Assembly: GCA_050298595.1 (NCBI GenBank)
Contig: JBNKUM010000058.1
Coordinates: 1-25,598, forward strand
Direction: 5' to 3'
DNA length: 25,598 bases
Source of the DNA: Gammaproteobacteria bacterium
GTDB taxonomy: Bacteria > Pseudomonadota > Gammaproteobacteria > GCA-001735895
In this document: one piece after another, positions 4,701 to 19,212 of the stretch
How the letters are laid out: every line of letters begins with the position of its first letter
Position numbering within the stretch: the first letter of the stretch is position 1
Translations under genes and position numbers: made by a program
The notes under the pieces: model-generated
The model's database searches: none
Seen by the model: the letters and a program-made list of their open reading frames with translations, nothing else
What the model was told of the DNA's origin: nothing

Positions 4701-5109
4701 AGGTACGGGCGATGATCTGTTAATTGGCGGTAGTGGAAACGATAGTCTGCTAGGTGGTGCTGGTATCGATATATTCGCTCTGGAAGCAGGGGATGAAGGT
4801 AGCAGTCTGGCTCCTGCAGTGGATACCATTGCTGATTTTACTGTTGGCACTGGTGGTGACGTGCTGGACCTCTCCGATATTTTGGTTAGTGAGGATCTGT
4901 CGACACTAGATAACTATCTCAACTTTAGTTATGACAGCAATACTGGCAATACCACCATTAACATAGATCCAGCGGGAGTAGATGCCGCATTAGAAGCATC
5001 ACAGCAGATTATTTTGACAGGAGTTGATTTAACTTCGAATGGGTCGTTAAGTGATCAACAAATACTGGATAACCTGTTGAATCATGGTAATCTGATCGTC
5101 GATCATTAA
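1..5109 (+). CDS. Giant T1SS-secreted RTX adhesin (VCBS repeats, Ig-like domains, vWA, PPC-like, RTX repeats, C-terminal T1SS target domain); 5'-truncated by the window
   Basis: Frame 1 is open from base 1 (TINGTNDAATVSSA...), so the TTG at 91 is not the real start. Contains tandem 98-aa repeats, a vWA MIDAS motif DVSGS (2956-2970), a PPC-like segment DDQDWIKVTLAQGETI...GEYYVVI (~4240-4480), GGxGxDxLx repeats (4591-4776) and a C-terminal DTIADF..G.GGDVLDLSDIL motif typical of T1SS substrates. Stop TAA at 5107-5109. Confidence 0.93.
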   Translation, partial: TINGTNDAATVSSATVALTETDSALTTSGTLTSIDVDNVDNAFTASTTTGTYGDFSIDASGNWTFTANSAFNNLNVGDSVNETFNVTSEDGTPSTVKITINGTNDVATVSSASVALTETDAALTTSGTLISTDVDNSDNAFTPGSTTGTYGDFSIDAAGNWTFTANNAFDNLNVGDSVNETFSVASVDGTPSTIQITINGTNDAATVSSASVVLTETDSALTTSGTLTSTDVDNVDNAFTASSTTGTYGDFSIDASGSWTFTANSAFDNLNVGDSVNETFNVASVDGTPSTVQITINGTNDVATLSSASIVLTETDTALTTSGVLTSSDVDNTDNAFTPSSTSGTIGDFSIDASGNWTFTANNAFDSLNVGDSVNETFTVTSIDGTASSVQITINGSNDTATVSSASVALTETDAVLSTTGTLTSTDVDDAANAFNPSTISGALGDFSIDANGNWTFTANSTFDSLNTGDSVNETFTVSSVDGTASTVQITINGSNDAAAVSSATTTLTETDGALTTNGTLTSTDVDNPDNSFTPATIAGTLGDFTMDASGNWVFTANSAFDNLNTGDSINETFNVTSVDGTASTVQITINGTNDAPTTSANSYTVAEGSTLSTTVTGGILANDIDPEGSSMSVVQVATDNLGNGAVVADGVNEITTALGGTVVVNSDGSFSYTAPAVLDHSSSDTLLDSFAYMSTDGSLDSSWTTVTFNVTDTAPVAVADADSVGYGGTIYGNVITGAGGTGSGEDSVGADGAQLTSVTYKGTTYSNFDASGNVSINADHGSLAINKDGSYSYHSNELTITPVSDELFSYTIQDNDGDSASAVLTVNHDNINAAIGDVTTVYESGLARGTEHNTNLEFTSGNLLDNDTGIGANTEISQLTFGGHTVSPSGGVITINGNYGTLTVYTADTATNRMGDYEYTLTSASSGDAVTESFQYSLQDSVTGQSSTANLSVGIVDDAPGGIDIVQNLATGAAPNTYNLSIVLDVSGSMDWLAPDGQTRLQIAKDSLEALIREVDGLGNVNVQIVAFSDFTSSSGWFIDDVYGAMDFLNGLSAGGGTYYDSALNTLINSGAQPAADQNLVYFVSDGVSTWDHGVDNTITYTNNAGITLNGQDAWESYVEENVDIAFGIGIGSASLSELQQVAHPEVNGADPYAITVADPADLTVTLLETVSNNIISGSIDVLGANGAAGFVIGADGGYISEIIIDGVSYSYDPLSGASNLLTVVTALGGTLDIDFASGEYVYTLDVDQSVLGQVEHFPVTVIDNDGDVFSANIQFNIDYQPGLDANQDIIITNISDGTPIHISDSALLHNDRVDANAFLSAADNAVGGTVSMGSGEVIFSTEGNALSESDFSTTSAAVEINDRGEYTATNNSALTATDMSDRSLFSSNVGNLSGVNSNGYSAAYYGSIYSSDDQDWIKVTLAQGETIHLNVSSFAVSASIYDSNGNYVLDVASHSWEPNGGFTAPASGEYYVVIKADYTWSSGKYDLLMTIDTSSADYSTFDYTLDNGAGVLDTTSAGIHTVSGNTLTGGKESEILISGDQSDTLAGNAGDDVLFGNAGNDILQGGTGDDLLIGGSGNDSLLGGAGIDIFALEAGDEGSSLAPAVDTIADFTVGTGGDVLDLSDILVSEDLSTLDNYLNFSYDSNTGNTTINIDPAGVDAALEASQQIILTGVDLTSNGSLSDQQILDNLLNHGNLIVDH
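4591..4776 (+). repeat. RTX (hemolysin-type Ca2+-binding) nonapeptide repeats
   Basis: Translation reads GNAGDDVLF, GNAGNDILQ, GGTGDDLLI, GGSGNDSLL, GGAGIDIF, preceded by degenerate units. Confidence 0.92.
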
Positions 5110-5133: not shown

Positions 5134-5961
5134 ATGAATGTAGAGTCAACTACGGCTGCTATCGACGATCTGGCTGAAGCGAAATTTCAACGCGATGGTT
5201 ACCTGATTGTGCCTCAGTTATATGAGGTCGATCGCTGCATGGCAATCCGTGAAGAAATCCTTGAGTCGCTCAATCCATTACGTGGCCCGGCAGAATTTGA
5301 AGTAGATGTGCAGTATCCCGGTTCGCCTGAGGATAGATCCAGCGAGGGAGGCAATACGCCACGCCGTTTATTGCATGCCTATGGTCGTAGTCAACTGTTA
5401 AGAGAATGGTCAACCGGGTCTATCGTCAGAGATTATCTGCAAAGGCTGATGGGCAGTAAAGACGTGTTATTGTCGCAATGTCATCACAACTGTGTGATGA
5501 CCAAGCACCCCGGGTACAGCTCTATTACATCCTGGCATCAGGATAACCGCTACTGGCGCTTCGACCGACCTGAACTGGTGTCGGTGTGGCTGGCGCTGGG
5601 TGATGAGTATGAAGCGAATGGAAGCCTGATGTTTATTCCAGGCTCACATCGACTGGATCTTGCATTAGGTCGCTTTGACAGAGATATTTTTTTCCGTACC
5701 GATTTAGAAGAAAACAGCGAATTACTGGCGTCTGCAGTTACTGCAGATTTAAAGATGGGAGATGTGGTTTTTTTCCATTCACGAACCCTGCATGCAGCTG
5801 GTATGAATAATACTGATTCGGTAAAACTCTCGCCTGTTTTTACTTATCACACTGAGGATAACCAGCCGATACCAGGAACCCGCTCAGCGCTTTATCCCTC
5901 TATCAGGCTACAGGCTCCAATTACTAAACAGAGTCTGCAGCCTTCAAATGACAATATTTAA
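5134..5961 (+). CDS. Phytanoyl-CoA dioxygenase (PhyH) family Fe(II)/2-oxoglutarate dioxygenase
   Basis: N-terminal F.RDGYL motif, WHQD (HxD), SVWLAL, NGSLMFIPGSH, and GDVVFFHSRTLHAA (distal His). Confidence 0.9.
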   Translation: MNVESTTAAIDDLAEAKFQRDGYLIVPQLYEVDRCMAIREEILESLNPLRGPAEFEVDVQYPGSPEDRSSEGGNTPRRLLHAYGRSQLLREWSTGSIVRDYLQRLMGSKDVLLSQCHHNCVMTKHPGYSSITSWHQDNRYWRFDRPELVSVWLALGDEYEANGSLMFIPGSHRLDLALGRFDRDIFFRTDLEENSELLASAVTADLKMGDVVFFHSRTLHAAGMNNTDSVKLSPVFTYHTEDNQPIPGTRSALYPSIRLQAPITKQSLQPSNDNI

Positions 5962-6007: not shown

Positions 6008-7834
6008 TTATTTGATCGTCAATACATCAGCCCCCGGTTTGTCCTGGTAAAGCGCTTTTACCAGATCGGCTCTTCTCGCCAGTACCGAACGCTGGTTAAC
6101 CGATCCCTTGTCGGTCATTTCGCCAGTTTGTATCGAGGCGTCTTCGCTCATGATCATGACACGTTTGATCAGGGTGGAGCTGCCTGTTGAAACTTCTTTA
6201 TATTCGTTCAAAGCGCGCTGGATATACTCCCTGATGATGTGATTTGAGGCCAGTTCTTCAGTGCTTGCATTGGTGAGTGTTGGGTCCATTTTTCGGGCCT
6301 GTTCCACATCAAGAAATAGTAAAGCTCCGATAAAGTCCAAATCGTGTCCGGTTAGCACCAGCTCTCGTACCAGCGGTGCAGCATGGTTGATAAAACCTGC
6401 ACGCAGATTGGCAAAGTTGACCCAGGTTCCGGTCGACAGTTTGAAGTCTTCTGCGAGTCTTCCGTTGTACATCAGGCCTTTAGATATATCGTCAGGATCG
6501 GCCAGTTTGACGGCATCCTTGATACAGTAAAAACCTTCGTCATCAAAGGCTTCGGCGGTTTTGTCGGGCTCGCCCCAGTAGCCTGGTGTAATCGATGGGC
6601 CGCGTACACGAAGTTCGGTTTTGACATCGTGTGGAACCAGCTTGAATTCAACACCGACAGCAGGTAGGCCGACCAGGCCTGGTTTTCTCATCGGCCCAAT
6701 CGGGCAGGTGGCGAAAGGTGCAGTTTCGGTGGCACCGTATCCGGTAATGATCAGGGTTTCCTTGCCTACGGTTTCGATCGACATCTCTTCCAGACGTTTG
6801 AAGATATGCGGGGACAGGCCGGCGCCTGAGTATTGAATTAACTTGACGTTTGAAAAGAATTTTTCTTTCAACTCAACGTTTTTTTCCATTTCGGCGACCA
6901 GCAATTCAAAGCCTTTAGGGACATTGAAATACAGCGTGGGTGCTATGTCACACAGGTTTGTGACCGAATGATGCATTAAGTTTGGAGTGGGCTTTCCTTC
7001 ATCGATATACAGCGTACCGCCATTATAAAGCGTCAGGCCAAAGTTGTGATTACCACCTGCTGTGTGATTCCATGGTAGCCAGTCGACCAGCACTGGAGGT
7101 TCATCCTGCAGAAAAGCAATGGATTGACGAATCATTTCCTGGTTGGAACACAGCATGCGCTGGGTATTGATCACTCCTTTAGGCATGCCGGTAGATCCTG
7201 AGGTAAAAAGAAGTTTGGCAACGGTATCCGGTGTGATAGACGCTTCGGCAGCAAGCAGAGATTCACCCGGAACAGTTGCCAGAGCATCTGCAAGACTGAA
7301 GCCGCTTTCGGCATTGTCTACGGCCATTACCATGCAATCGACTTCAACTGCCTGTATAGCCTGTTTGAATGGCTCGGTGTCATCCACGAAAATCATCGAT
7401 GGAGACATGAGTTCAAGAACGTAACTGAGTTTGACGTAGTCGGTAGATAGCAGCGCATAGGCGGGAGTGATGGCTGCATAGGGAACACCGGCACGCATCG
7501 CGCCCAGAGCCATGAGTGCGTGGTCAATAGAGTTGGGTGCCATAATGGCGAGACCATGTTCTGCGCTCAAGCCCTTATCCAGCAGGTATTGACCAATGGC
7601 GCGAGACTGATCTTTAATCTGTTTATAGGTTAGTGATCTCCAGCCAGAGTCTGCGCGTCTATCAGCGATAGCCATGTTATCCGGCGTTTTTTCAGCCCAT
7701 TCATCCAGCTTGTCGAATAGCGCTCTCGGGTAATCGGGCAGGGGGGCGTCATTAGTAATGTAAAGCACCCCGTCATCAGCGTGGCGTAAAGTTGCTTTTG
7801 CCCAGTTCATGTTGACCGAACGTAGATTAGCCAT
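6008..7834 (-). CDS. fcs: Feruloyl-CoA synthetase-like (hydroxycinnamoyl-CoA) ligase, AMP-binding family
   Basis: AMP-binding P-loop [58 protein letters not shown] and C-terminal [11 protein letters not shown], all characteristic of the Fcs subfamily. RBS GAGGA upstream. Confidence 0.88.
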
Positions 7835-7904
7835 TTAATTGTTCCTCGAAATAAGGTTTTCCAGGCCGTGTAATTTTATATCTGACTCTGGGTTAAGTTA
7901 GTCG

Positions 7905-8783
7905 TTATTTGTTTTCAGACTCAGCCAGTCCTAATAAACGGACCGCGTTATCTTTTAGAATCCGTTGATGAACTTCGGGCTTGAACCCCGCATTCTGGAA
8001 ATCAGATATCCAGCGTTCAGGTGTAATCAATGGAAAATCGGATCCGAACAGTATGCGATCCTTCAACAGCGTATTGGAATACTGGATGAGCTGTTTAGGA
8101 AAATATTTTGGCGACCAGCCGGATAGATCGATATAGATATTCGGCTTATGCACAGCCAGTGACAAAGCTTCGTCCTGCCAGGGCCAGGAAGGATGCGCAA
8201 TAATAATCTTGATGTCTGGAAAATCGATAGCCACATCTTCCAGTAGCATGGGGTTTGAATTCTGCAGACGCAGTCCACCACCAGCACGCATACCTGAGCC
8301 AATGCCTGAGTGACCACTATGGAAGATTGCAGGCATGTTATATTCTGCAATTACTTCATAGATAGGCCAGGCCATCTTGTCGTAAGGCAGAAACCCCTGT
8401 ACGGTCGGGTGAAACTTGAAGCCCCTGACACCATAGTCTTCGATCATACGGCGAGCTTCTCGCGCACCCATTTTACCTTTATGAGGATCGATACTGGCGA
8501 AAGCGATCATCATGTCGCTATTTTTCTGAGCGGCTTCGGCAACTTCTTCGTTAGGAATACGGCGACGTCCGAGCTGGCTTTCAGAGTCTACAGTGAACAT
8601 CACCAGGCCGATTTTCTGCTCACGATAATACGCAACAGTTTCATCTATGGTAGGACGGTGCGACGAACCGAAATATTTATCTGCAGCTCGATCATACTCT
8701 TCACCAAAGCTGTCTGGCGGAGCGCAACAGGATACTTCAGCATGGGTATGCATATCGATGGCAACGAGTTCATCTATATTCAT
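7905..8783 (-). CDS. Amidohydrolase-2 family protein; probable aryl-beta-ketoacyl-CoA hydrolase (CouO/PhdC/Atu1421-like)
   Basis: Metal-binding D-x-H-x-H (DMHTHAE), GFKFHP, FHSGHSGIG, AHPSWPW, YIDLSGWSPKYF and FGSDFP. It is adjacent to the fcs-like ligase. The family call is firm; the specific activity is inferred from context. Confidence 0.82.
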   Translation of the reverse strand: MNIDELVAIDMHTHAEVSCCAPPDSFGEEYDRAADKYFGSSHRPTIDETVAYYREQKIGLVMFTVDSESQLGRRRIPNEEVAEAAQKNSDMMIAFASIDPHKGKMGAREARRMIEDYGVRGFKFHPTVQGFLPYDKMAWPIYEVIAEYNMPAIFHSGHSGIGSGMRAGGGLRLQNSNPMLLEDVAIDFPDIKIIIAHPSWPWQDEALSLAVHKPNIYIDLSGWSPKYFPKQLIQYSNTLLKDRILFGSDFPLITPERWISDFQNAGFKPEVHQRILKDNAVRLLGLAESENK

Positions 8784-8812
8784 CAGAGATACCTTCTATT
8801 TTTTGTATGGGG

Positions 8813-10123
8813 TCATAGCGCTATACCCCAGGTCAATATTGGGAAAAGTACTAGCAGTACAACCCGAGTAAAGTCAGAAATCAGGAAAGGCAGAACACCC
8901 TTAAAGGTTTGGTTCATGGGTACATCACCAGCCATTTTGTTGATGACGAATACGTTCATGCCAACTGGTGGAGTAATCATGCCCACTTCAACTACGATCA
9001 GGCAGAGTATGCCAAACCAGAGTGCGGTTTGTTCCTGCGTCATACCAAAATCCAGCACCATAATAGCAGGGAAAAAGATGGGTATTGTAAGCAGAATCAT
9101 ACTCAGGGAATCCATCAGGCAACCCAGCACCAGATAAACTAGTAGTATCACAGCCATAACCATGTAAGGCGATAAACTGCTTTCAATAATATATTCGGCC
9201 AGATATTCAGGCATGCCACTAAGGCTAAGAAATGCATTGAAGATATCGGCACCCAGAATGATGACAAAAATCATACCGGTATTGATGGCTGTCTGGGTCA
9301 GGCATTCTAGAAAGCGATTGATATTCATCTGGCGATTTGCAATGGCGATTATCGTGGTTCCTATGACACCAAATGCGGCTGCTTCAGTTGGCGTAAATAT
9401 ACCGGCATAGATTCCGCCGAGTACCCCGAGAAACAGGATACTGGCAGGTAGCAGGTTGATTATGGCGTGAAGCTTTTCATTCCAGCTGGTTTTTTCGGAG
9501 CAATCGGCATAATCAGGGTGCAGCTTTACCACCACCAGAATCGCAATCATATATCCCAGTATTGCCATCACACCGGGTACCATTGCAGACAGAAATAGTT
9601 TGGCAATATTCTGTTCGGTTAATAATGCGTAGATGATTAATACGATTGAGGGTGGAATCAAAATCCCCAGTGTGCCACCCGCAGCAAGAGCACCGGTTGA
9701 CAGGGCTCCGTTGTATCCGTGACGACGCATTTCGGGTAATGCTACCTGACCCATGGTTGCAGCCGTTGCCAGAGAGCTTCCACAGATTGCGCCGAACAAG
9801 CCGCAACCACCTACCGCAGCCAGTGCCAGTCCACCTCGATAGTGGCCAATAAAGGCATTCATTCCATCAAACAACGATTTACTAATACCGGAGCGTGATG
9901 CCAGGTTCCCCATTAACAGAAATAGCGGAATGATCGAGTAACTATTATTAGCCATCTGATTAAAACTGGAGTTTTTCAAAAAGAAAAACAACGTTGTGTA
10001 ATCATCAATGATGGTGTATCCCAGAACACCTGCTGCCATCATGGCGACACCAATAGGGATGCGGATGAACATTAACACCAGCATCAGGATGACCATCAGG
10101 CCAGCTACACCTTCACTACTCAC
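8813..10123 (-). CDS. dctM: TRAP transporter large permease
   Basis: Highly hydrophobic 436 aa with motifs IPLFLLMG, GAICGSSLATAA, GGTLGILIPPS, FTPTEAAA and ITPPVGMNVFV. GTG start just after the dctQ stop. Confidence 0.95.
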   Translation of the reverse strand: MSSEGVAGLMVILMLVLMFIRIPIGVAMMAAGVLGYTIIDDYTTLFFFLKNSSFNQMANNSYSIIPLFLLMGNLASRSGISKSLFDGMNAFIGHYRGGLALAAVGGCGLFGAICGSSLATAATMGQVALPEMRRHGYNGALSTGALAAGGTLGILIPPSIVLIIYALLTEQNIAKLFLSAMVPGVMAILGYMIAILVVVKLHPDYADCSEKTSWNEKLHAIINLLPASILFLGVLGGIYAGIFTPTEAAAFGVIGTTIIAIANRQMNINRFLECLTQTAINTGMIFVIILGADIFNAFLSLSGMPEYLAEYIIESSLSPYMVMAVILLVYLVLGCLMDSLSMILLTIPIFFPAIMVLDFGMTQEQTALWFGILCLIVVEVGMITPPVGMNVFVINKMAGDVPMNQTFKGVLPFLISDFTRVVLLVLFPILTWGIAL

Positions 10124-10126
10124 GTT

Positions 10127-10636
10127 CTAGTCCTTTCTGATAAGAGTGAATTGTCGCGCGGCGATGATAAATCCCGCAATACTTAGCATATATAAACCGC
10201 CTGCAATGATGCCGTAAAACCACCATTCTTTTAGGCGTAGCATCATTGTTTCGTTATCGTAATTGTACGCATCTACCCCTCCTACAGAGGTTTGCCAGGC
10301 GAGTAGTAAAGCCAGTAAAGCCAGCAAAATACTGCCCGTAAAATCCAGAGAGGCTTTGAATCCAGTCGATGAATGTGCAGTAAAGACGTCGACGATGACA
10401 TTGCCGTAGCGCATGTGACAATAAGGCAGGCAAAGGCTAACCGCGACACCGGTTAGCAATTTGACAATTTCAGAGTCACCAACGATGGGGGAGTCAAAAA
10501 AATAACGCCCCGTCACGCTGATGACTGTAATGATAGACATGAGGACTAGCACGAAGCCTGCAATAATCGCCAGTTTTTTGCTAAACGATTCAAATAGAGC
10601 GCCAAAAGCAGGAGCCTCTGATCTCGTGGTTGTCAT
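10127..10636 (-). CDS. dctQ: TRAP transporter small permease
   Basis: 169 aa with about four TM segments, V.GRY.F..PI.G..E and GNVIVD motifs; lies between dctP and dctM. RBS AGGAGG. Confidence 0.92.
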   Translation of the reverse strand: MTTTRSEAPAFGALFESFSKKLAIIAGFVLVLMSIITVISVTGRYFFDSPIVGDSEIVKLLTGVAVSLCLPYCHMRYGNVIVDVFTAHSSTGFKASLDFTGSILLALLALLLAWQTSVGGVDAYNYDNETMMLRLKEWWFYGIIAGGLYMLSIAGFIIAARQFTLIRKD

Positions 10637-10677
10637 GCTGTCCTCCTGAATTTTTCGAACTTATGGTGAACGGCTAA

Positions 10678-11727
10678 TTATTGTTCGCTGTATTTGTTGA
10701 GCAATGCATTAGCAGAGTCCAGCAAGGCCTGACCGTGGAGACCTTTTTTGTTCATTTCTTCGACCCAGGCTGTGTGTACTGGCAAGGCTTCTTCACGCAT
10801 TTTATAAACATCTTCTGTTGGCATGGCAACGATAGTATTTCCATGTTTTCTGGCTATTTCGCGAATAGGACCTTCAGCATCTCTATAGTATTTACCAGCG
10901 ATTTTTGCCCATTTCATACCAGAGTTATCGTCGATCACTTTTTTCAGATCAGCAGGTAGTGAGTTGTATTTATCCTTATTCATCGCAAGCATCAGAACCG
11001 CCGTATATATACCACGTTCACCCAGTACTTCAGTAGAGCTATCTGCCAGTTCATGCAGACGGAAAGCCGGTACAATTTCCCAGGGTACAACTGTACCATC
11101 TATAACATTTTTGGATAATGCTGCAGGCATCTGAGGAATAGGCATTGCGACGGGTACCGCACCGTAGGCAGTCATGGCATCAGCAACTGGACGACTCGGA
11201 ATACGAATCTTCATACCTTTCAGGTCTGCCAGGCTTCTAACGGTTTTATTCTTGGTATGGATAACACCGCGATCATGTGACCACAGAATTAATGGATGGA
11301 TATCCTTGAATTCTTTCTGAACTTCTTTGTTGGTGTCGTAATATTCCTGAATTGCCTGAGAAGTCTGTACCGCGTCAGTGACCATGAAGGGGAGTTCAAA
11401 AGCAGATATGGCTGGAAAACGTCCAGGCGTATAGGCGGGTAAGGTGAAAACAACATCGACAAAACCGTCTTTTACCTGATCAACCAGATTTGGCGCTTTA
11501 CCGCCCAGTTGCATAGACGGATAGATCTTAACCTTGATGCGTCCATTGGATTCCTTTTCTATGGCGTTTTTCCAGGGAATGACAAAGTTTTTGTGGGCAG
11601 GAGACTGCTTGGGTAGAAAGTGATGCAGTTTAAGTGTTATTTCTGCTGCCTGTGCAGATACAGTAAGTACTGACATCAGGGCGCAGGTGGTAATGAGTCG
11701 TTTAGCCAGAAATTTGAGTTTAAACAT
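10678..11727 (-). CDS. dctP: TRAP transporter periplasmic substrate-binding protein, probably for aromatic carboxylates
   Basis: Signal peptide ending AQA; ESNGRIKVKIYPSMQLGG, YTPGRFP, FELPF, and DLKGMKIR with the conserved carboxylate-binding Arg. Confidence 0.93.
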   Translation of the reverse strand: MFKLKFLAKRLITTCALMSVLTVSAQAAEITLKLHHFLPKQSPAHKNFVIPWKNAIEKESNGRIKVKIYPSMQLGGKAPNLVDQVKDGFVDVVFTLPAYTPGRFPAISAFELPFMVTDAVQTSQAIQEYYDTNKEVQKEFKDIHPLILWSHDRGVIHTKNKTVRSLADLKGMKIRIPSRPVADAMTAYGAVPVAMPIPQMPAALSKNVIDGTVVPWEIVPAFRLHELADSSTEVLGERGIYTAVLMLAMNKDKYNSLPADLKKVIDDNSGMKWAKIAGKYYRDAEGPIREIARKHGNTIVAMPTEDVYKMREEALPVHTAWVEEMNKKGLHGQALLDSANALLNKYSEQ

Positions 11728-11792
11728 AATGTATTCCTCGATGAGTTTACGAACATGGCATGGGTCAGATTGCTGCCCATGACTCTATTTTT

Positions 11793-11807
11793 GTTATAAG
11801 TTATAAC
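11793..11807. promoter_or_regulatory. Putative MarR (CouR-like) operator upstream of dctP
   Basis: GTTATA-AGT-TATAAC, a perfect 6-3-6 inverted repeat 66 bp upstream of the dctP start. It overlaps a candidate minus-strand promoter (TTTACA at 11826-11821, 17-nt spacer, TAACTT). Confidence 0.75.
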
Positions 11808-12805
11808 TAAAAAAAGATTTTGTAAACCAGTTTTTCAGTTAGCAATCAAAAATATTGACAACTTATTTTGGCTTAACTGGCCCATAATGTGTATATAAAT
11901 CCATAAAAAATATTGCTAATAAATCAAATAGTGAGATTAAAGCTAAAATTATATAAATACAGAAGTTTGATGGTGATTTATTGAATAAATGAAATATGCT
12001 ATAAAATATAACTAAAAAATGGCTGAATGGCTATTTTTGGAGTAATACAGACATTGCATGTTTATTACTTAATATTGTTTAGATGCTGATCTTATTGGTG
12101 CTGACCGTATTTGTTAGCATCTTACAGACTGAAACCAGCAAAGCCTGTCCATCTAGGTCCATTGTATTCATTTCTATAATCCTCACTAAGTGTGCGGTAT
12201 AACTCACTGTACGCATCTTTGCCGACTTGTCCTCTGGCAAGTTATATAGGTGTTCCTATTATTAATGGTTATATTCCGTCCAAGAATTTCGGCTTTGTCC
12301 CAGACTTCAATCATCTCTTTTGCTTAGGGGAGCTCTGGTCGTTTACTTTTTCAGCTTATCGGGTACTAAATTGTATCTGGTTTCTATCAGCGGGTATTTC
12401 AGTAGGGCTTTTGCCTGTTTAAGCAGGTGAAGGCTGGGTGAAAATTGCTATGGAACCAGGGGGCTTTCGAAGATGTTCTTGCTCAGTGCTCACATTAATA
12501 TACGGGGCATCAAAAGCTGTTTGTTTAAGAACTTAAAGTCGATCAAAACCGGGGTTCCTGAAAAGTTTATGGAAATAGGCGGCGTATGGGAGCTAAATAA
12601 AAATTTTTGTTATAACTAATTATTACTTTATATTTATAAGTCAGAGCGGAATAAATAATTAATACATTAAGATCGAATATATTGGTCTCTATTCGGTAAA
12701 ACTGGCTACCAGTTAATGATTCTATGTATGATAAAAGTAGGTTTAATTCTTTAATATGGTGAAATTATTGAAAATATAGACTTCCCAAATTATAAGTTTT
12801 CAGCC

Positions 12806-12832
12806 TATAATGTTATACATTATAACATTATA
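12806..12832. promoter_or_regulatory. Putative MarR (CouR-like) operator upstream of the enoyl-CoA hydratase
   Basis: TATAATGTTATA-CAT-TATAACATTATA is a perfect 12-3-12 inverted repeat containing the GTTATA-N3-TATAAC core (12812-12826) and a TATAAT hexamer. It ends just before the GGAGA RBS. Confidence 0.82.
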
Positions 12833-12841
12833 TTTGGAGAA

Positions 12842-13624
12842 ATGATTGTGGAGTTACCAGCAACACTGGAATTAGAAATGAGGGATGATATTGCGATCCT
12901 TTCGTTAAACCGAATAGAGAAGCGTAATGCGATTAATGATGAGCTTGTTTTTGGGCTGGAGAGTTTTTTTCGTCAAATACCTGAGGGTATCAAGGCGATA
13001 ATACTGACAGCCAGGGGTGATAACTTTTCAGCCGGGCTAGATTTATCAGACATTGTAGAACGCTCAACCATCGAAGGTGTAAAGCATTCCATGAGCTGGC
13101 ATCGGGCATTTGAATTAATTGAATTTTCACCGGTACCGGTTATTTGTGTCATGAAAGGTGCTGTAGTGGGTGGTGGACTAGAGCTTGCTAGCTCGACACA
13201 TATACGTATAGCAGAAGACTCAACCTATTACTCACTCCCGGAAGGCCAGCGCGGGATCTTCGTCGGTGGTGGCGCGTCAGTACGTGTTCCCCGCCTGGTA
13301 GGTGTATCAGTAATGACTGATATGATGCTGACTGGACGTTTGTTTAATGCTGACGAAGGCGCAAAACTAGGGTTATCAAATTATCGGGTCGCAGATGGAG
13401 AAGGGTTAGCAAAGGGACTGGAAGTCGCGAGAAAAGTTGCCGACAACTCGCCAATGACCAATTTTGCAGTCATTCAGGCATTGCCGCGTATTGCTGAAAG
13501 CAACCCTGGTCAGGCATTTATGATGGAGTCTATGATGGCAGCCATCGCCCAGGGTAGTGAAGAGGCGAAAGGAAAATTAAGAGCTTTTCTTGAGAAACGA
13601 GCCAAGAAAGTCACCGACTTTTAA
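12842..13624 (+). CDS. Crotonase/enoyl-CoA hydratase, probably hydroxycinnamoyl-CoA hydratase (PhdE/Atu1417-like)
   Basis: LNRIEKRNA, FSAGLDL (oxyanion loop), GGGLELA and LPEGQRG (both catalytic Glu), and MMLTGR. Confidence 0.9.
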   Translation: MIVELPATLELEMRDDIAILSLNRIEKRNAINDELVFGLESFFRQIPEGIKAIILTARGDNFSAGLDLSDIVERSTIEGVKHSMSWHRAFELIEFSPVPVICVMKGAVVGGGLELASSTHIRIAEDSTYYSLPEGQRGIFVGGGASVRVPRLVGVSVMTDMMLTGRLFNADEGAKLGLSNYRVADGEGLAKGLEVARKVADNSPMTNFAVIQALPRIAESNPGQAFMMESMMAAIAQGSEEAKGKLRAFLEKRAKKVTDF

Positions 13625-13664
13625 TGCTTTTCAAATTTTTGGGAATTCCTGAGGGCTATAATTT

Positions 13665-14426
13665 ATGAATATTAAGAATAAAGTTGCTTTGGTTACCGGT
13701 GGGGGATCAGGCTTAGGTGCTGAAACAGCACGAATTCTTGCTGCTAATGGCGCCAAAGTTGCGGTGCTTGATATCAATGACCAGGCAGCAGCAAAAGTTG
13801 CCGATGAAATTCAAGGTATAGCGGTGCACTGCGATGTTTCTTCGGAGCAAAGTGTCTCTCAGGCATTAGATACCATTGAGCAAAAATTAGGTGTAGCTCA
13901 GATTGTTGTTAATAGTGCTGGTATCGGTACTGCGAAACGAATTCTGGGTCGAGACCAGGTGCACCCACTGGAAAATTTTACCAGAGTTATTGACGTTAAC
14001 CTGATTGGAAGTTTTAACCTGCTGCGCCTAAGTGCAGAAAGAATGTCAAAACTGGAACCTTCTGAAGATGGTGAACGAGGAGTCATTATTTTTACTGCTT
14101 CTATCGCGGCTTTTGAAGGCCAGATAGGGCAGGCGGCATACTCTGCTTCAAAAGGAGGCATAGTGTCTATGACTTTGCCTGCTGCAAGAGAATTGGCTCA
14201 ATTTGGCATTCGAGTATTAACATTGGCTCCAGGGTTGTTTAAAACGCCGTTGATGGAAGAGCTTCCTGAAGAAGTTCAACAGAGTCTTGGGGCTTCTATT
14301 CCATTCCCCGGTCGATTGGGTAAACCGATTGAATTTGCATCTCTGGCATTACATTGTGCAGAAAATACATTTTTGAACGGTGAAGTGATTCGAGTTGATG
14401 GTGGGTTAAGGTTGCCACCACGTTAA
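13665..14426 (+). CDS. SDR family type II 3-hydroxyacyl-CoA dehydrogenase (HSD17B10/PhdB-like)
   Basis: TGGGSGLG, NSAG, ERGVII.TASIAAFEGQIGQAAYSASKGG (YxxxK), PFPGRLG and NGEVIRVDG. Confidence 0.92.
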   Translation: MNIKNKVALVTGGGSGLGAETARILAANGAKVAVLDINDQAAAKVADEIQGIAVHCDVSSEQSVSQALDTIEQKLGVAQIVVNSAGIGTAKRILGRDQVHPLENFTRVIDVNLIGSFNLLRLSAERMSKLEPSEDGERGVIIFTASIAAFEGQIGQAAYSASKGGIVSMTLPAARELAQFGIRVLTLAPGLFKTPLMEELPEEVQQSLGASIPFPGRLGKPIEFASLALHCAENTFLNGEVIRVDGGLRLPPR

Positions 14427-14470
14427 AAAGTATCCAGAGAATCTCTGATTAAATCATTTTTTATTCTGGC

Positions 14471-14553
14471 TAGAAATGCCCCGATTCGTCCCGAAGATGG
14501 CAGCAACAGGGTGGCTATTACAGCTCGCTTCGAAACGAATCGGAGTATTTCTA
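14471..14553. repeat. 83-bp element with 26-bp imperfect inverted arms (MITE/REP-like or long RNA hairpin) between convergent genes
   Basis: TAGAAATGCCCCGATTCGTCCCGAAG (14471-14496) and CTTCGAAACGAATCGGAGTATTTCTA (14528-14553) are complementary at 22 of 26 positions. Both ends are TA. Confidence 0.7.
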
Positions 14554-14572
14554 TCTCAGTCTTCAACCAGGA

Positions 14573-15067
14573 TTAATCATAGGTTCCCAGGGTTTTTATT
14601 TTTTCAGCCTCAATGATAAGAAGCAGGCACTCTTTGAACAGTTGATATCGTTCTTCACCCAGACGTTCATGCAGTAGACTTTCGTGCAGGTGAAATTGTT
14701 GGTGTAGGTGATCGAGTAATTTTTCACCCTTGGTGGTCAGGTGTAGAGCATGCGCTCGCAAATCATTGGTTGAAGGTTTGCGTTCTATTAAGCCGCGTTG
14801 TTGCAGCTTATCTAGCATGCCGACCATGTTCGTACGTTGAATATTAAGTGCCTTAGCCAGGTTGGATTGGCGTAACCCAGGGTTGCTGTGAATGATCTCA
14901 AGAGCACTGAATTGGGCGGGTTTAATATCCAGTGCTTCAAAGAAGTGATTAAACTCCTGAAATATCCTGAGCTGGGCACGACGAATGAAATAGCCCAGAG
15001 AAGAATTGAGAACACCATAATTAAGGTCAGCGTTTTTAGCGGAGCTGTTTTTTTTTGATTTACTCAT
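14573..15067 (-). CDS. MarR family transcriptional repressor (CouR/FerC/HcaR/PhdR-like)
   Basis: LGYFIRRAQ N-terminal helix, PAQFSAL..I..NPGLRQ..LA..L.I.R.N....LD.L..RGLIER and DLRA..L.LT.KG wing motifs; embedded in the catabolic cluster. Confidence 0.93.
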   Translation of the reverse strand: MSKSKKNSSAKNADLNYGVLNSSLGYFIRRAQLRIFQEFNHFFEALDIKPAQFSALEIIHSNPGLRQSNLAKALNIQRTNMVGMLDKLQQRGLIERKPSTNDLRAHALHLTTKGEKLLDHLHQQFHLHESLLHERLGEERYQLFKECLLLIIEAEKIKTLGTYD

Positions 15068-15097
15068 AGATAGCTAAAGTCACATATTTATAAATTA

Positions 15098-15112
15098 ATT
15101 ATACATTATAAC
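15098..15112. promoter_or_regulatory. Putative MarR operator between the divergent marR and acyl-CoA dehydrogenase genes
   Basis: ATTATA-CAT-TATAAC has one mismatch to GTTATA-N3-TATAAC and the same CAT spacer as the 12812 site. It lies in an 86-bp divergent intergenic region. Confidence 0.7.
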
Positions 15113-15153
15113 TTTTAATATTATTTTAGTAGTGCTTTTTTGGGAGAAAAATT

Positions 15154-17244
15154 ATGAGTGATGTGGAAAATGAAAATGCCATTAATATTGAGGCAAACAA
15201 AAATGAGGTTGATCAACAGGATCGGGTCTCTCAATCCACAACATCGATTGCACTTGAGGCAGCAGGCGATAGTGAGTCAGCTCGAGATATTGGAGCGCTT
15301 GATGATGTCGCGCAAGCTGTAGATAAAAAACTCGCGGCAACCAGAACCGGGTTGGTCGAAAGGCTAATCTATGGTCCAGCTCCAGATGCGACCGAATTAC
15401 AGTCAGGCAGTCGTGTATGTACTCGACTCCAGCAACAGGATCAGCCAGTTGTCGATGCAGCAGTAGCCTGTATGGCAAATGGCGATGCGTTTACTCTTGA
15501 TGGGAAAATATCTGCTCAATTACGCAATGCAGTAGCGGCAGAAAAAGCCTATGGGTTAACCGTACCTGTAGAGTTTGGTGGTAAAGGAACTGCTTATGCC
15601 GGATTAGCGCGTATTGAAGAGTTATTAGCGGCAAAAGGTTTGGGTGCGCTGGCTGTTGAAATATCAGGTCAGTTGACTATCGGTGCAAGTTCGGTACTTG
15701 GGTATGGCAGTGATGAACAGAAAAAAACCTATTTACCCATGCTGGTCGAAGGTCGTTTAATTGGCTTTGGATTAACTGAGGTAGGTGTTGGCGTAAACGC
15801 TAAAAAAATTCAGGCCTATGTTGAAGAGGATGAAAATGGGGGCTTCCGCTTATTTGCTGATGGTCCGAGAAATAAATTATGGATTACCAGTGCAACTCAC
15901 GGAGGGCTATTAGGCCTGGTTGCACGTATTGGCAAAGGTAGTCGTAAGATTGGTTTATTTGTGGTTCAACTACCCGAAAAGGATGTAGAGAGTACCGATG
16001 ATTGTGATTACGAATTTCGTTGCGAACATTCTGGGGTTGCGGCGTTTGAAGCGAATATTAATTCTCGAATTCATTTTAAGAATTTTCCCATTCCAAAACA
16101 AAATCAAATTCCAGCCGATGGCGTTGAAGTCCTGTTCTATTGTCTACGCATGGGGCGCTGCATGCTGGCGGCAATGTCAGCGGGTTATCAACGGATGCTT
16201 GCACGAGATGCCAGTCTTTTTGCGATTCAAAGAATTGGTGTAGGCGGTCCGGTCATCAAGCATGAAATCCCGCGACTGGCACTCGCAAGAATGCTCGGAG
16301 GCTCATTACAGTCAAGAGCACTGTCCTATTTATCTTTAAAGCAGGATGAAGATGGCGTTGACCTGGCGGGTTTGCGCGATCTGACGAAATCAGCAGCAGC
16401 CAATACAGGACAGGAAAGCATGATCGCCTGTGAACATGTACTGGGTGGCCGTAGCTTTGCCAAAGGGAGCAGAGTAAGTGATGCGCGAGTCAATCTGCAT
16501 TTATTTGGTGTAGTCGAAGGCGAAGATGACATGATTCGTATGGGTATGGTACGTGATGTCACGCTGAAATTTGTTAATAATTATCTGTCTGGCATGATGG
16601 ATGCGATTAATGCAGCAAATCTGGATGAGCAAGGTCAGATGCTACCAGCCAGTGAGAGAATTTTACGCATTGGTCTAGATTCCTTTATTCAACAACCACA
16701 GCGTTCCTTTAAAGCATTATCTACCTTGTTTAAATCAAGGCAGGTCTATCAGCTGATGGGTTGGATTGTGAGCAATGCAGCAAGTGACCTTGTCAGGTTG
16801 CCAGGTAATCTATTACCCGTATCGTGGGTGGGGCGTTATAGTGGCTTGCCAAAAGAATTAAGAAGCTACGTACGCTTTGCTGAATCACATCTGAGACAAA
16901 TTCGCTGGAGCTATCTGGGATTCAGTCTGTTTTACCAGCTGGAGTTAACTCGTGCGCAGATTCCCTTGCAAAGACTCGGTTATGCGATTGAACAGTTGGT
17001 CTCTATGTTAGTGCTTTGTCATCATGCAGCCGTACAGGATAAATCACAGCAACAGATTGCATCAGTTCATGCACAGATACTGAAAGAAAAATATCAGGGA
17101 ATTAAGTTATTTACCTCGGTGGCAGAGATACAGAGATTGCGTCGACAGGTATCCAATGTTGGTGATGCGATTGAGAAAGGCCAGTCCAGCCTGCTTAACG
17201 AAATCGAACCGGAGCCATTTGCGCATCCATGGGCTGAGGAGTAG
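15154..17244 (+). CDS. Acyl-CoA dehydrogenase family protein (long, atypical)
   Basis: YGLTVPVEFGG, YGSDEQKKTYLP, FGLTE, KLWITSA, LRMGR, LGGRSF and VVEGEDDMIR (position of the MCAD-type catalytic Glu). It has a long C-terminal extension. RBS GGGAG. Confidence 0.85.
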   Translation: MSDVENENAINIEANKNEVDQQDRVSQSTTSIALEAAGDSESARDIGALDDVAQAVDKKLAATRTGLVERLIYGPAPDATELQSGSRVCTRLQQQDQPVVDAAVACMANGDAFTLDGKISAQLRNAVAAEKAYGLTVPVEFGGKGTAYAGLARIEELLAAKGLGALAVEISGQLTIGASSVLGYGSDEQKKTYLPMLVEGRLIGFGLTEVGVGVNAKKIQAYVEEDENGGFRLFADGPRNKLWITSATHGGLLGLVARIGKGSRKIGLFVVQLPEKDVESTDDCDYEFRCEHSGVAAFEANINSRIHFKNFPIPKQNQIPADGVEVLFYCLRMGRCMLAAMSAGYQRMLARDASLFAIQRIGVGGPVIKHEIPRLALARMLGGSLQSRALSYLSLKQDEDGVDLAGLRDLTKSAAANTGQESMIACEHVLGGRSFAKGSRVSDARVNLHLFGVVEGEDDMIRMGMVRDVTLKFVNNYLSGMMDAINAANLDEQGQMLPASERILRIGLDSFIQQPQRSFKALSTLFKSRQVYQLMGWIVSNAASDLVRLPGNLLPVSWVGRYSGLPKELRSYVRFAESHLRQIRWSYLGFSLFYQLELTRAQIPLQRLGYAIEQLVSMLVLCHHAAVQDKSQQQIASVHAQILKEKYQGIKLFTSVAEIQRLRRQVSNVGDAIEKGQSSLLNEIEPEPFAHPWAEE

Positions 17245-17554
17245 CCAGAGGCCTTAAAGAGAGCGGTGATAATAGCCTTGATGGGCGTAATGACCATGGC
17301 AAGTTACCTTTTTTTCATGCATAGAAATTAATCCCGTTTGCAGTATTTGGAGGTTTTTAAATTCACTTTGGACAGATTCGGCCTTGCCGTAAGTATCCTG
17401 CTTTTCTTCAATTTTATTTCACACATCCCCTGGCTTTTTTAAATCTCGCTACACAGCGGACTGATCAGCTACTCGAAACCTTTGCAGGGCGATATACGAG
17501 TATTGATTTGCGCAGTTAGCTACGAGTTTTTTGTTGAGATGTTCTAAATTTAAT

Positions 17555-17569
17555 GTTATAACAAATAAC
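17555..17569. promoter_or_regulatory. Putative MarR operator upstream of the porin gene
   Basis: GTTATA-ACA-AATAAC has one mismatch to the consensus, with complementary T/A flanks. It is about 430 bp upstream of the porin ATG, in AT-rich DNA where chance matches are more likely. Confidence 0.5.
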
Positions 17570-18000
17570 AAATAATAAAATGTATTTAAAAGATACGAAA
17601 TGATTGAAATAGCAGTTATTAACATATTAATAATTCAATAAATATAATTATATACAAAAGTACATAATCAATAGTTAATAAAATTTATAAGTATTTGAAA
17701 AATAGATATAAAATACAATCAAATTTATATTAGAAGACGTTAATATGTGCCTTAATATCTTAAATAAAATGATTAGAATGAGGTGATAAAGTAAAAAGAT
17801 AATAATGTTAAAAAAGTACAATATAATGATAAGGCATAACATAGATATTTTACTTTCTCAGGCTTAGCATGTTCGTCATATCAAGTTGTTGATATGAGAG
17901 CCTTGTAATGTCTTTGTGACAATGCCGATTTCAATTGCCATCTTGTTTACAAGCATAAAGGGCGTATGCCCAAAAAATTAATCTTTGAGGAAACCGATAT

Positions 18001-19212
18001 ATGAAAATCAATTTTCGAGAGGGTCAAGTACCTTCAAACACAGGAGCTAAGCGAGTTAATATAGCCCTTGCTAGCGCGATTGCAGCACTGTCAATTTCTA
18101 GCCAGACATTTGCAGCTGGTGATGCTCCTGCCATCACGGTTTATGGAAATCTGGATACAGGTATTGAATACCTGACCAATGTAGATTCAGGTAAAGATAC
18201 TGTCATCCGTATTCCGGGGATCACTGGAACCATGGCTTCCCGGCTTGGGTTTAAAGCCAATAAGGATATCGGTGACGGATACAGCGCGTTTGCAGTCATG
18301 GAGCTGGGTGTTAGTCCTGATGATGGAACCATTCGACAGGGTGGACGTATTTTTGGTCGTCAATTGAATTTTGGTATGCAAACCCCCGCTGGCCGCTTCG
18401 CGATTGGTCGTCAATACTCACCATTTTTGTTTGCGACTGGAGATTTAATGGGACCAAATATTTATTCTCTTGGCTCTCTGGACGCGTACTTGCCTAACGC
18501 TCGTATGGATAACTCGATTTCCTGGAGCAACAAATTCGGTGACAATCTGTCTGTTGCGCTGGCTTACTCGTTTGGTCGTGATACTACGGGTGCGGTACCT
18601 CTTTCGGGTACCTGCTCAGGTGAGGAAGGTGCGCCAGGTCCTGCTGAGGTAGATTCATCTGCCTGTAAACAGGTAGCGGCAACGCTGAAATATAAGGGTG
18701 ATGGGTTTAGCATAGCTGCAGGAATTGATAAGCAAAATGGCGGAGCAGGTGCTGAAGCTTATTTTTTTAATGGCTTAGATTTCTCGTCACCAGGCCATGG
18801 TATTGACATGAGTGATTCAGGTGATACTGATACAAGGACTACTATATCCGGCAGTTTTAACCTGGGTGCTGCTACCGTTGGTGTTGGTGTGCTCAACAGA
18901 AAGCTTGATACAGATGCCAGAAAAATCGAGTCAGATACGGTTTATGTGAGCGCAAGATATAAAGTTAGCCCGAAAACAACTGTCAATGCTGGAGTTTACA
19001 GTATTACCAATGATGACCAGGATGCGGATGCAACTCTAGCTGTAGTTAGAGCAATTTATAACCTAGATAAAGGAGTGGATTGGTATGCACAGGTTGGTAG
19101 TATCAGTAATAGCAGTAAAGCCAGTTATGGCTTGTCTCCAGGTGCAAACACGGCTGCTCCAGCGGGAGAAAGTCAGACTGGTGTAATGGTAGGTTTTCGT
19201 TACAAGTATTAA
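18001..19212 (+). CDS. Gram-negative porin (Porin_4 / Omp32-like type)
   Basis: Signal peptide ending TFA, mature N-terminus ..ITVYGNLD.G, SRLGFK, FGRQ, GRQY, DAYLPNARMDNSI, amphipathic strands and C-terminal VGFRYKY (aromatic last residue). RBS GAGG. Confidence 0.9.
   Translation: MKINFREGQVPSNTGAKRVNIALASAIAALSISSQTFAAGDAPAITVYGNLDTGIEYLTNVDSGKDTVIRIPGITGTMASRLGFKANKDIGDGYSAFAVMELGVSPDDGTIRQGGRIFGRQLNFGMQTPAGRFAIGRQYSPFLFATGDLMGPNIYSLGSLDAYLPNARMDNSISWSNKFGDNLSVALAYSFGRDTTGAVPLSGTCSGEEGAPGPAEVDSSACKQVAATLKYKGDGFSIAAGIDKQNGGAGAEAYFFNGLDFSSPGHGIDMSDSGDTDTRTTISGSFNLGAATVGVGVLNRKLDTDARKIESDTVYVSARYKVSPKTTVNAGVYSITNDDQDADATLAVVRAIYNLDKGVDWYAQVGSISNSSKASYGLSPGANTAAPAGESQTGVMVGFRYKY

Follow-up and report, generated by a model that had tools for sequence, protein, structure and literature searches.

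By analyzing the window, which comprises the whole of a 25,598-base contig (C58) from a gammaproteobacterial genome of 5,491,039 bases (119 contigs, estimated 98.6% complete), we found a gene cluster that is predicted, with a probability of about 0.8, to be a regulon for the uptake and side-chain shortening of hydroxycinnamates or related phenylpropanoates. A preliminary description of this DNA had proposed a CoA-dependent route of beta-oxidative deacetylation under MarR control, combined with an importer of the TRAP (tripartite ATP-independent periplasmic) type and an acyl-CoA dehydrogenase (ACAD), and homology, synteny and genome context all support this core proposal. The ten genes that it had listed, encoding a ligase, an amidohydrolase, DctPQM, a hydratase, a short-chain dehydrogenase/reductase (SDR), a MarR regulator, an ACAD and a porin, were each recovered at their coordinates from the open reading frame (ORF) list and from Pfam and NCBIfam matches (Table 1).

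All but the porin gene form a nine-gene block, in which dctPQM-amidohydrolase-ligase lie divergently from hydratase-SDR, followed by the MarR gene and a gene for an unusually long ACAD. The gaps from dctP through dctQ, dctM and the hydrolase gene to the ligase gene are 41, 3, 29 and 70 bp and that between the hydratase and SDR genes is 40 bp, both spacings being operon-like; the porin gene starts 756 bp beyond the long ACAD gene. The block occurred in identical order in five other genomes of the genus (G labels below denote genomes, G000 being that of the window, and L labels individual loci). Among the genomes searched, 5 of the 13 others in the genus carried the cluster, against 0 of 11 from other genera in the family and 0 of 16 class representatives. 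Despite this patchy distribution within the genus, recent horizontal transfer was not indicated by composition, the GC fraction being 0.447 in the cluster and 0.450 in the genome.

Predicted enzymes of a hydrolytic beta-oxidative route

Sequence comparison related the cluster to one on a plasmid of Rhizobium sp. Q54, which carries product names of the Agrobacterium fabrum type and is 36–57% identical to the window gene by gene. The ligase, which is 82–98% identical across the genus relatives, matched the annotated feruloyl-CoA synthase of that plasmid at 48% identity over 585 aa, while the hydratase was 47% and the SDR 57% identical to their Q54 counterparts. The amidohydrolase was 57% identical to the Q54 protein annotated as the same hydrolase, a name that comes from annotation, and 49–53% identical to homologues on Rhodococcus plasmids, where it stands in other gene sets. 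It is strikingly conserved, with the best 120 of 8,000 scored database proteins being 78–93% identical. From these relationships we infer that the amidohydrolase releases an aromatic acid from an aryl-beta-ketoacyl-CoA.

The hydratase passed the cut-off of NF006013/PRK08150 (365.5 bits against 232) and failed that of NF006588/PRK09120 (75.2 bits against 276), a model that no protein in the whole genome exceeded. Since we take PRK09120 to be the hydroxycinnamoyl-CoA hydratase/lyase model, the aldehyde route seems to be absent from this genome, and on the same assumption the hydratase seems not to be of the hydratase/lyase (HCHL/Ech) type. The best solved relatives of the SDR were 3-hydroxyacyl-CoA dehydrogenases, namely 4o5o (E 1.2e-83), 1uay (2.8e-76) and the type II enzyme 1u7t (1.5e-75).

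A predicted importer and a predicted repressor resembling hydroxycinnamate systems

Comparison with solved binding proteins by phmmer placed DctP with six structures at E values of 5e-94 to 6e-80 (including 5i5p, 5iga, 5im2, 7nr2 at 1e-86 and 7nsw at 4e-80), the next match being at 3e-38. An AlphaFold2 (AF2) model of DctP, built on a 33-sequence alignment with a predicted local distance difference test (pLDDT) score of 92.2, superimposed at Z 48 and 1.1 Å, with 48% identity, on TRAP binding proteins from marine metagenomes whose titles read ‘specific for aromatic acid ligands’; at Z 46 and 40% identity on TarP_Csal, solved with coumarate, caffeate and ferulate; and at Z 45 and 46% identity on TarP_Sse, solved with coumarate and cinnamate. 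An arginine, R175, which may be the carboxylate-binding residue, was invariant across the 33 sequences. The TarP of Rhodopseudomonas palustris (7nqg), 28% identical to DctP, is described as a member of the CouR regulon whose Kd is nanomolar for coumarate, caffeate, ferulate, cinnamate and 4-hydroxyphenylpropionate (PMC3610893). With dctQ and dctM lying directly downstream of dctP, these relationships support the prediction that DctPQM is a TarPQM-type importer of hydroxycinnamates.

The best solved relative of the MarR protein was CouR (6c28, E 3.2e-25), followed by MarR itself at E 4.8e-11, and its identity to the MarR of the Q54 plasmid cluster was 36%. By this kinship, it is most likely a CouR/HcaR-type repressor released by a hydroxycinnamoyl-CoA thioester. 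In Rhodococcus jostii RHA1, CouR is described as being released from DNA by p-coumaroyl-CoA, with p-hydroxycinnamoyl-CoA given as the releasing ligand and inverted repeats at several promoters as the binding sites of this MarR repressor (PMC4737184).

Operator-like palindromes in three promoter regions

Motif searching of the window found exact copies of TTATANNNTATAAC at 11794, 12813 and 15099, all within AT-rich promoter regions. The looser form TTATA-N3-TATAA occurs six times in the whole genome, and three of these copies are at this cluster. In 500 dinucleotide-preserving shuffles, an exact site arose 0 times in the dctP-hydratase spacer (33% GC) and 3 times in the 86-bp region between the MarR and ACAD genes. 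The palindromes are conserved in the genus: O1 (Table 1) is kept at the same place in L107, L108, L109, L110 and L111, and all three recur in L107, L108, L110 and L111 and two in L109, where the hydratase-proximal O2 is degenerate (L003 and L109 are one and the same contig). Alignment of the MarR/ACAD spacer from six genomes showed a single long invariant block, ATTATAC.TTATAACTT, which covers O3 and has variable flanks. The preliminary description had assigned one shared operator motif to four promoter regions; exact, genus-conserved sites bear this out for three of them, and the fourth, that of the porin gene, held a one-mismatch site only.

The spacer between dctP and the hydratase gene (11728–12841) is 1.1 kb long and AT-rich, and contains two additional operator-like sites, one with a single mismatch at 11999 and GTTATAAC at 12609. 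Estimated from tblastn match coordinates, its length within the genus varies, with about 0.3 kb in L003 and 1.8 kb in L107 as the extremes, and in L108 it holds a fourth exact operator-like site. No ORF of at least 90 aa was found in the spacer of the window and no second copy of it in the genome, and no Rfam family matched the window at gathering thresholds. Outside the cluster, a fourth perfect palindrome, GTTATAATTTATAAC, is located at position 1955 of contig C85 (L083), between an aldehyde dehydrogenase gene and a gene for a XylR/MobR-type sigma-54 activator; it is kept in G004 (L115, position 3128) and not in G011 (L114), and is a candidate for a further operator, remote from the cluster, of the MarR described here.

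Gene order in other bacteria and comparison with known systems

The gene grouping was further surveyed at 80 loci around close amidohydrolase relatives in reference genomes, with counts restricted to the fetched flanks, many of them on short contigs. A ligase (at least 40% identity) was found in 69 loci, a hydratase (at least 45%) in 64 and an SDR (at least 55%) in 34; ligase and hydratase occurred together in 60, and ligase, hydratase and SDR in 34. Together with the nine-gene block in the five other genomes of the genus, this survey sustains the grouping that had been proposed. Among individual loci, the Rhizobium sp. Q54 plasmid carries ACAD-SDR-feruloyl-CoA synthase and hydratase-MarR-hydrolase-TRAP, and on an Alloyangia pacifica plasmid MarR, ligase, hydratase, SDR, TRAP, feruloyl esterase and amidohydrolase genes stand together. 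Considering these two plasmids and the R. palustris CouR regulon with its TarPQM (PMC3610893), the combination is less unusual than the preliminary description, which knew of no such characterized unit, had assumed. A literature search found no paper on the combination of TRAP with the hydrolytic route; published neighborhood descriptions may overlap with it, so we make no claim that it is unpublished.

In Agrobacterium fabrum, the SpG8-1b genes (Atu1415–Atu1422) are described as encoding a similar route, with Atu1416 as the feruloyl-CoA synthase, Atu1417 as the hydratase, Atu1415 as the phenylhydroxypropionyl-CoA dehydrogenase, Atu1421 as the beta-ketoacyl-CoA-cleaving enzyme and HcaR as the MarR regulator (PMC7797058). 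According to the portion of that report consulted, the eight genes code in addition for a vanillate O-demethylase, an enzyme resembling MetF and a further repressor, of the GntR type, with no transporter among them (PMC7797058). In contrast, the cluster described here, compared with the Atu proteins by description, carries a TarPQM-like TRAP importer in the hydrolase-ligase operon as well as the long ACAD gene, and the demethylase lies elsewhere. The cou genes of R. jostii RHA1 (CouL/M/N/O/R/T) likewise are described as performing CoA thioesterification and beta-oxidative deacetylation, in whose last step an enzyme of the amidohydrolase superfamily gives the aromatic acid (PMC4737184); that system is actinobacterial, with the operator ATTGA-N5-TCAAT instead of TTATA-N3-TATAA and a different kind of transporter, and CouO was compared by description. 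Similarly, the Corynebacterium glutamicum phd genes (PhdT, A, R, B, C, D, E) are described as comprising a ligase, a hydratase, a 3-hydroxyacyl-CoA dehydrogenase, a 3-oxoacyl-CoA ketohydrolase and the repressor PhdR, and differ, by description, in having an MHS-family permease, PhdT, in place of TRAP (PMC13434420) and in belonging to a Gram-positive organism with no porin.

The CouR regulon of R. palustris (couAB, TarPQM, CouPSTU) is described as placing a TRAP importer and catabolic genes under a p-coumaroyl-CoA-responsive MarR, as predicted here, and as using a non-beta-oxidative hydratase/lyase route (PMC3610893), whereas in the window the SDR and the amidohydrolase would complete a beta-oxidative one. 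Aromatoleum aromaticum EbN1 was considered as the closest Gram-negative case and set aside, its route being described with a TetR-type regulator, an ABC importer and 4-hydroxybenzoyl-CoA as the end product (PMC9765128).

Predicted downstream pathway and substrate range

The preliminary description had found no ring-cleavage or demethylase genes in the window, and such genes proved to be on other contigs. The region 26000–45999 of contig C47 (L091) holds an aromatic funnel cluster with pobA (609.5 bits, over the cut-off), a cytochrome P450 with ferredoxin reductase, a second TRAP system, two HpaA-like AraC regulators and a complete protocatechuate 4,5-cleavage set of ligA, ligB, ligK, 4-oxalomesaconate (OMA) tautomerase and ligC-, ligI- and ligJ-like ORFs, and contig C9 holds a VanA_C oxygenase gene. 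No protocatechuate 3,4-dioxygenase match was found in this genome. The pobA, VanA_C and 4,5-cleavage genes thus give the expected products of the cluster an onward route.

The same machinery could alternatively serve other aryl-alkanoates, such as the non-phenolic acids cinnamate or 3-phenylpropionate, flavonoid-derived phloretate, or aryl-alkenoates of greater length. The promiscuity of TarP-type proteins, which also bind cinnamate and 4-hydroxyphenylpropionate (PMC3610893), the structure of TarP_Sse with cinnamate, the titles of the closest solved binding proteins, which name aromatic acids only, and the presence of an ACAD, which points to saturated side chains, are all consistent with such substrates. 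We nevertheless regard this as unlikely, as the pobA and 4,5-cleavage genes fit 4-hydroxylated products, the MarR is closest to CouR, which is described as recognizing the phenolic part of p-coumaroyl-CoA (PMC4737184), and orthologous clusters are annotated as, and have been studied for, ferulate and coumarate utilization (including PMC7797058). Hydroxycinnamates therefore stay the preferred substrates in our reading.

A divergent long acyl-CoA dehydrogenase

The dehydrogenase that had been called unusual proved, by structure and profile alignments, to be a divergent ACAD with the architecture of very-long-chain acyl-CoA dehydrogenase (VLCAD). Its Pfam matches are weak and confined to residues 117–467, and its homologues of about 680 aa, from uncultured Gammaproteobacteria and Planctomycetota, carry generic names (472 at E ≤ 0.001 among 7,999 scored). 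The AF2 model (pLDDT 84.6) aligned with human VLCAD (2uxw) at Z 28.1 and a root-mean-square deviation (rmsd) of 4.1 over 497 positions covering residues 63–650, and with a Bacillus anthracis long ACAD (3owa) at Z 27.7 and rmsd 2.8 over 505 positions covering residues 63–682; ACAD9 was also among the top structural matches, and ordinary 380-aa ACADs aligned with about residues 80–475 only. Sequence identity to VLCAD-type structures was 15–20%. A profile alignment placed the family's ‘VEGEDD’ on the VLCAD ‘FEGTND’, so that E455, which is invariant in 32 sequences, falls at the glutamate of ‘FEG’. The modeled protein therefore has the expected ACAD core, C-terminal helical domain and catalytic glutamate.

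ACADs accompany related pathways, PhdD of C. glutamicum being one. The 534-aa ACAD of Rhizobium sp. Q54 did not match the long ACAD at E ≤ 1e-5, which makes the latter a different ACAD lineage. When 400 genomes of the class were scored, with no more than two candidates taken from each, the long ACAD was found at E ≤ 1e-80 in G000 only. A metagenome survey yielded 57 loci with long-ACAD relatives of 47–67% identity; nine of the tabulated loci hold only a short piece of the ACAD, below the 50% coverage filter. In three of the 57 (L116, L162 and L172), a long ACAD of 55–64% identity stands beside ligase (47%), hydratase (47–49%), SDR (55–58%), MarR (42–45%) and TRAP genes (DctM 52–53%). L116 and L162 have a thiolase in the place of the amidohydrolase, together with a 4HBT thioesterase in L116 and a PobA-like flavoprotein in L162, and in L172 a search with the cluster proteins did not find an amidohydrolase. 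This recurrence, together with the operator preceding the gene, supports a role of the long ACAD in desaturating saturated arylpropanoyl-CoAs.

A broader proposal, which we hold tentatively and at slightly less than even odds, is that the ~680-aa family includes dedicated arylpropanoyl-CoA (dihydro-hydroxycinnamoyl-CoA) dehydrogenases that have been repeatedly recruited into TarPQM-linked phenylpropanoid modules, with the last C–C cleavage interchangeable between an amidohydrolase-type hydrolase and a thiolase paired with a 4HBT thioesterase. In the closest relative (L111, contig C95 of G001), where most other cluster proteins are 97–99% identical, the long ACAD matches over query residues 58–141 only (positions 11703–11954), perhaps because of a disrupted gene or a faulty assembly.

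The neighboring porin

In the preliminary description, the porin was a dedicated member of the regulon, and this part was not supported. Its 756-bp upstream region contains no exact operator; a single site, at 17556 and about 440 bp ahead of the start codon, comes within one mismatch, which was equaled in 47 of 500 shuffles. Three of the four relatives having both porin and cluster (G004, G010 and G012) carry the porin orthologue on another contig; it is followed by a second MarR gene and adjoins rpoH and ftsYEX in G004, and in G011 (L003) lies 2.3 kb past the ligase gene, beside a second MarR gene and a Liv-type ABC system. Moreover, the porin gene was the sole match to the porin query in the window's genome at E ≤ 1e-10. 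Probably, then, the protein is a lineage-specific general porin under its own control that lies next to the cluster by chance here. The opposite view is favored by the occurrence of orthologues (66–73% identity, E ≤ 1e-30) in four of five cluster-bearing and none of five cluster-lacking genus members, a comparison between kin that are not independent, and by porins of 46–47% identity within about 3 kb of the amidohydrolase gene in two Rugamonas genomes. Lacking a convincing operator and with most of its orthologues off the cluster, the porin is treated here as a possible helper and not as an established part of the regulon.

The hca genes of the Gram-negative Acinetobacter baylyi ADP1, which act on hydroxycinnamates through a hydratase/lyase and aldehyde dehydrogenase route, comprise a ligase, the ACAD HcaD, the OprD-type porin HcaE, a permease and the MarR regulator HcaR, so that neither porin nor ACAD would in itself be a novelty in a cluster of this kind. 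Unlike in ADP1, the porin is of the Porin_4 type (its sole Pfam match is PF13609, and no OprD family domain was found in it), the ACAD is long and VLCAD-like, and the route would be hydrolytic.

Weighing of the assignment

Several observations weigh against the assignment to hydroxycinnamates. The ligase scores 722.8 bits on its best NCBIfam model, NF009232/PRK12582, and stays under the cut-off of 777. The tie of the amidohydrolase to CouO, PhdC and Atu1421 runs through annotated orthologues. On a plasmid of Pseudomonas putida YC-AE1 (L100, NZ_CP047312.1 196726–217586), a 73%-identical amidohydrolase ends an operon with genes for an acetoacetate-CoA ligase, a Tm-1-like ATP-binding protein, biotin carboxylase and carrier proteins and a HAD hydrolase, which resembles an acetophenone-carboxylation route that would lead to the same aroyl-acetyl-CoA (beta-ketoacyl-CoA) intermediate; amidohydrolase identity is thus a better guide to the type of reaction than to where the substrate comes from. 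In addition, 54 of the 57 long-ACAD metagenome loci, many of them short contigs, were without such a cluster, and those inspected have unrelated neighbors. Finally, the second-best solved relatives of the hydratase are 4izb, 4izc and 4izd (E 1.6e-60), which we take to be DmdD of the dimethylsulfoniopropionate (DMSP) pathway.

The last match raises the alternative that the cluster degrades a non-aromatic acid through a ligase, an ACAD and a crotonase, such as DMSP-derived methylmercaptopropionate (DmdB/C/D-like) or a short acid with a branched chain. Ligase, long ACAD and crotonase genes do co-occur here, and by annotation the SDR family also holds 3-hydroxy-2-methylbutyryl-CoA dehydrogenases. 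However, three components, namely the binding protein, the MarR and the amidohydrolase, point independently of one another to aromatic acids, synteny ties the gene set to clusters with a feruloyl-CoA annotation, and the DMSP route (DmdABCD) is not known to need an SDR or an amidohydrolase, which makes this alternative very improbable.

Proposed pathway

In the hydroxycinnamate route that we propose, the TarP-like periplasmic protein would bind p-coumarate, ferulate, caffeate and probably their dihydro forms for import by the TarQM-like parts, with the neighboring porin possibly aiding entry across the outer membrane. The Fcs-type ligase would form the CoA thioester, which most likely frees the CouR-like MarR from the three TTATA-N3-TATAA(C) operators and would thereby lift the repression of dctPQM-hydrolase-ligase and hydratase-SDR as well as of marR itself and the ACAD gene. 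The crotonase would hydrate the enoyl-CoA, the type II hydroxyacyl-CoA dehydrogenase would oxidize the product to an aryl-beta-ketoacyl-CoA, and the Amidohydro_2 enzyme would split the latter hydrolytically, without passing through a free aldehyde, into acetyl-CoA and a benzoate such as 4-hydroxybenzoate, vanillate or protocatechuate, while the VLCAD-like ACAD may feed saturated arylpropanoyl-CoAs into the route by desaturation. PobA, the VanA-like oxygenase and protocatechuate 4,5-cleavage, encoded elsewhere in the genome, would complete the degradation.

Features of the window and flanking genes

Table 1. Cluster genes, operator-like palindromes and promoter candidate, in window coordinates.
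Feature	Position	Strand	Evidence and remarks
Fcs-type hydroxycinnamate/phenylpropanoate-CoA ligase, predicted, 608 aa	6008..7834	-	PF00501, PF23562; last gene of the dctP operon
Amidohydro_2 enzyme, putative aryl-beta-ketoacyl-CoA hydrolase, 292 aa	7905..8783	-	PF04909, E 9.7e-49, full length
TRAP large permease, TarM-like DctM	8813..10123	-	PF06808; TIGR00786, 306.6 bits, over cut-off
TRAP small permease, TarQ-like DctQ	10127..10636	-	PF04290
TRAP solute-binding protein DctP, TarP-like, 349 aa	10678..11727	-	phmmer against solved binding proteins
Operator-like palindrome O1 (TTATAAGTTATAAC)	11794..11807	.	exact; ~70 bp upstream of dctP
Sigma-70-like promoter of the hydratase-SDR operon, TTCCCA-18-TATAAT	12782..12811	+	10/12 consensus positions, consensus scan only; ends directly before O2
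Operator-like palindrome O2 (TTATACATTATAAC)	12813..12826	.	exact; 16 bp upstream of the hydratase start
Enoyl-CoA hydratase (crotonase), 260 aa	12842..13624	+	PF00378; NF006013/PRK08150
SDR, type II 3-hydroxyacyl-CoA dehydrogenase family, 253 aa	13665..14426	+	PF00106; PDB relatives
CouR/HcaR-like MarR, predicted repressor, 164 aa	14573..15067	-	PF01047; best solved relative CouR 6c28
Operator-like palindrome O3 (TTATACATTATAAC)	15099..15112	.	exact; within the 86-bp MarR/ACAD divergent region
Long ACAD, VLCAD architecture, putative arylpropanoyl-CoA dehydrogenase, 696 aa	15154..17244	+	weak PF02771, PF00441, PF02770
Porin_4 outer-membrane porin, 403 aa, place in regulon uncertain	18001..19212	+	PF13609, 124.9 bits

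Directly adjoining the ligase gene is a PhyH-family (phytanoyl-CoA dioxygenase-like) gene (5134–5961, + strand), which has a 96%-identical copy at the same position in G001 (L111); no PhyH gene was seen near the cluster in L003, L107, L108 and L110. Farther out, positions 1–5109 (+ strand) hold a 5′-open ORF (at least 1,702 aa) whose product combines six bacterial cadherin-like domains with Big_9, VWA and C-terminal RTX nonapeptide repeats and looks like a large secreted adhesin. On the other side, between 19369 and 25410, a TetR gene is divergent from genes for a LolA-like protein, two permeases of the MacB/FtsX type, an ABC ATPase and a protein of 420 aa without Pfam or NCBIfam match; these look like an exporter unit unrelated to the hydroxycinnamate cluster.

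Implications

Hydroxycinnamates are major lignin- and suberin-derived carbon sources. The cluster is best read as a new instance of the known CoA-dependent beta-oxidative (hydrolytic) deacetylation route, joined to known types of importer and repressor, and it leaves the general picture of how such pathways work unchanged. Its well-supported additions are the conserved operator and the lead on the uncharacterized long-ACAD family, for which, still unnamed, this would be the first functional lead; hydrolase and thiolase endings appear to be exchanged between otherwise similar clusters. The aldehyde-free hydrolytic route is of interest for turning ferulate and coumarate into vanillate, 4-hydroxybenzoate and protocatechuate without toxic aldehydes, and the window offers a compact set from an uncultured gammaproteobacterium, with a predicted high-affinity importer, four enzymes, an extra dehydrogenase, a repressor and a 13–14-bp operator. 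If the proposed role of the long ACADs is true, such loci would represent a modular uptake-and-shortening unit under a single MarR, with which uncultured marine and sediment Gammaproteobacteria would use both unsaturated and saturated plant phenylpropanoids.

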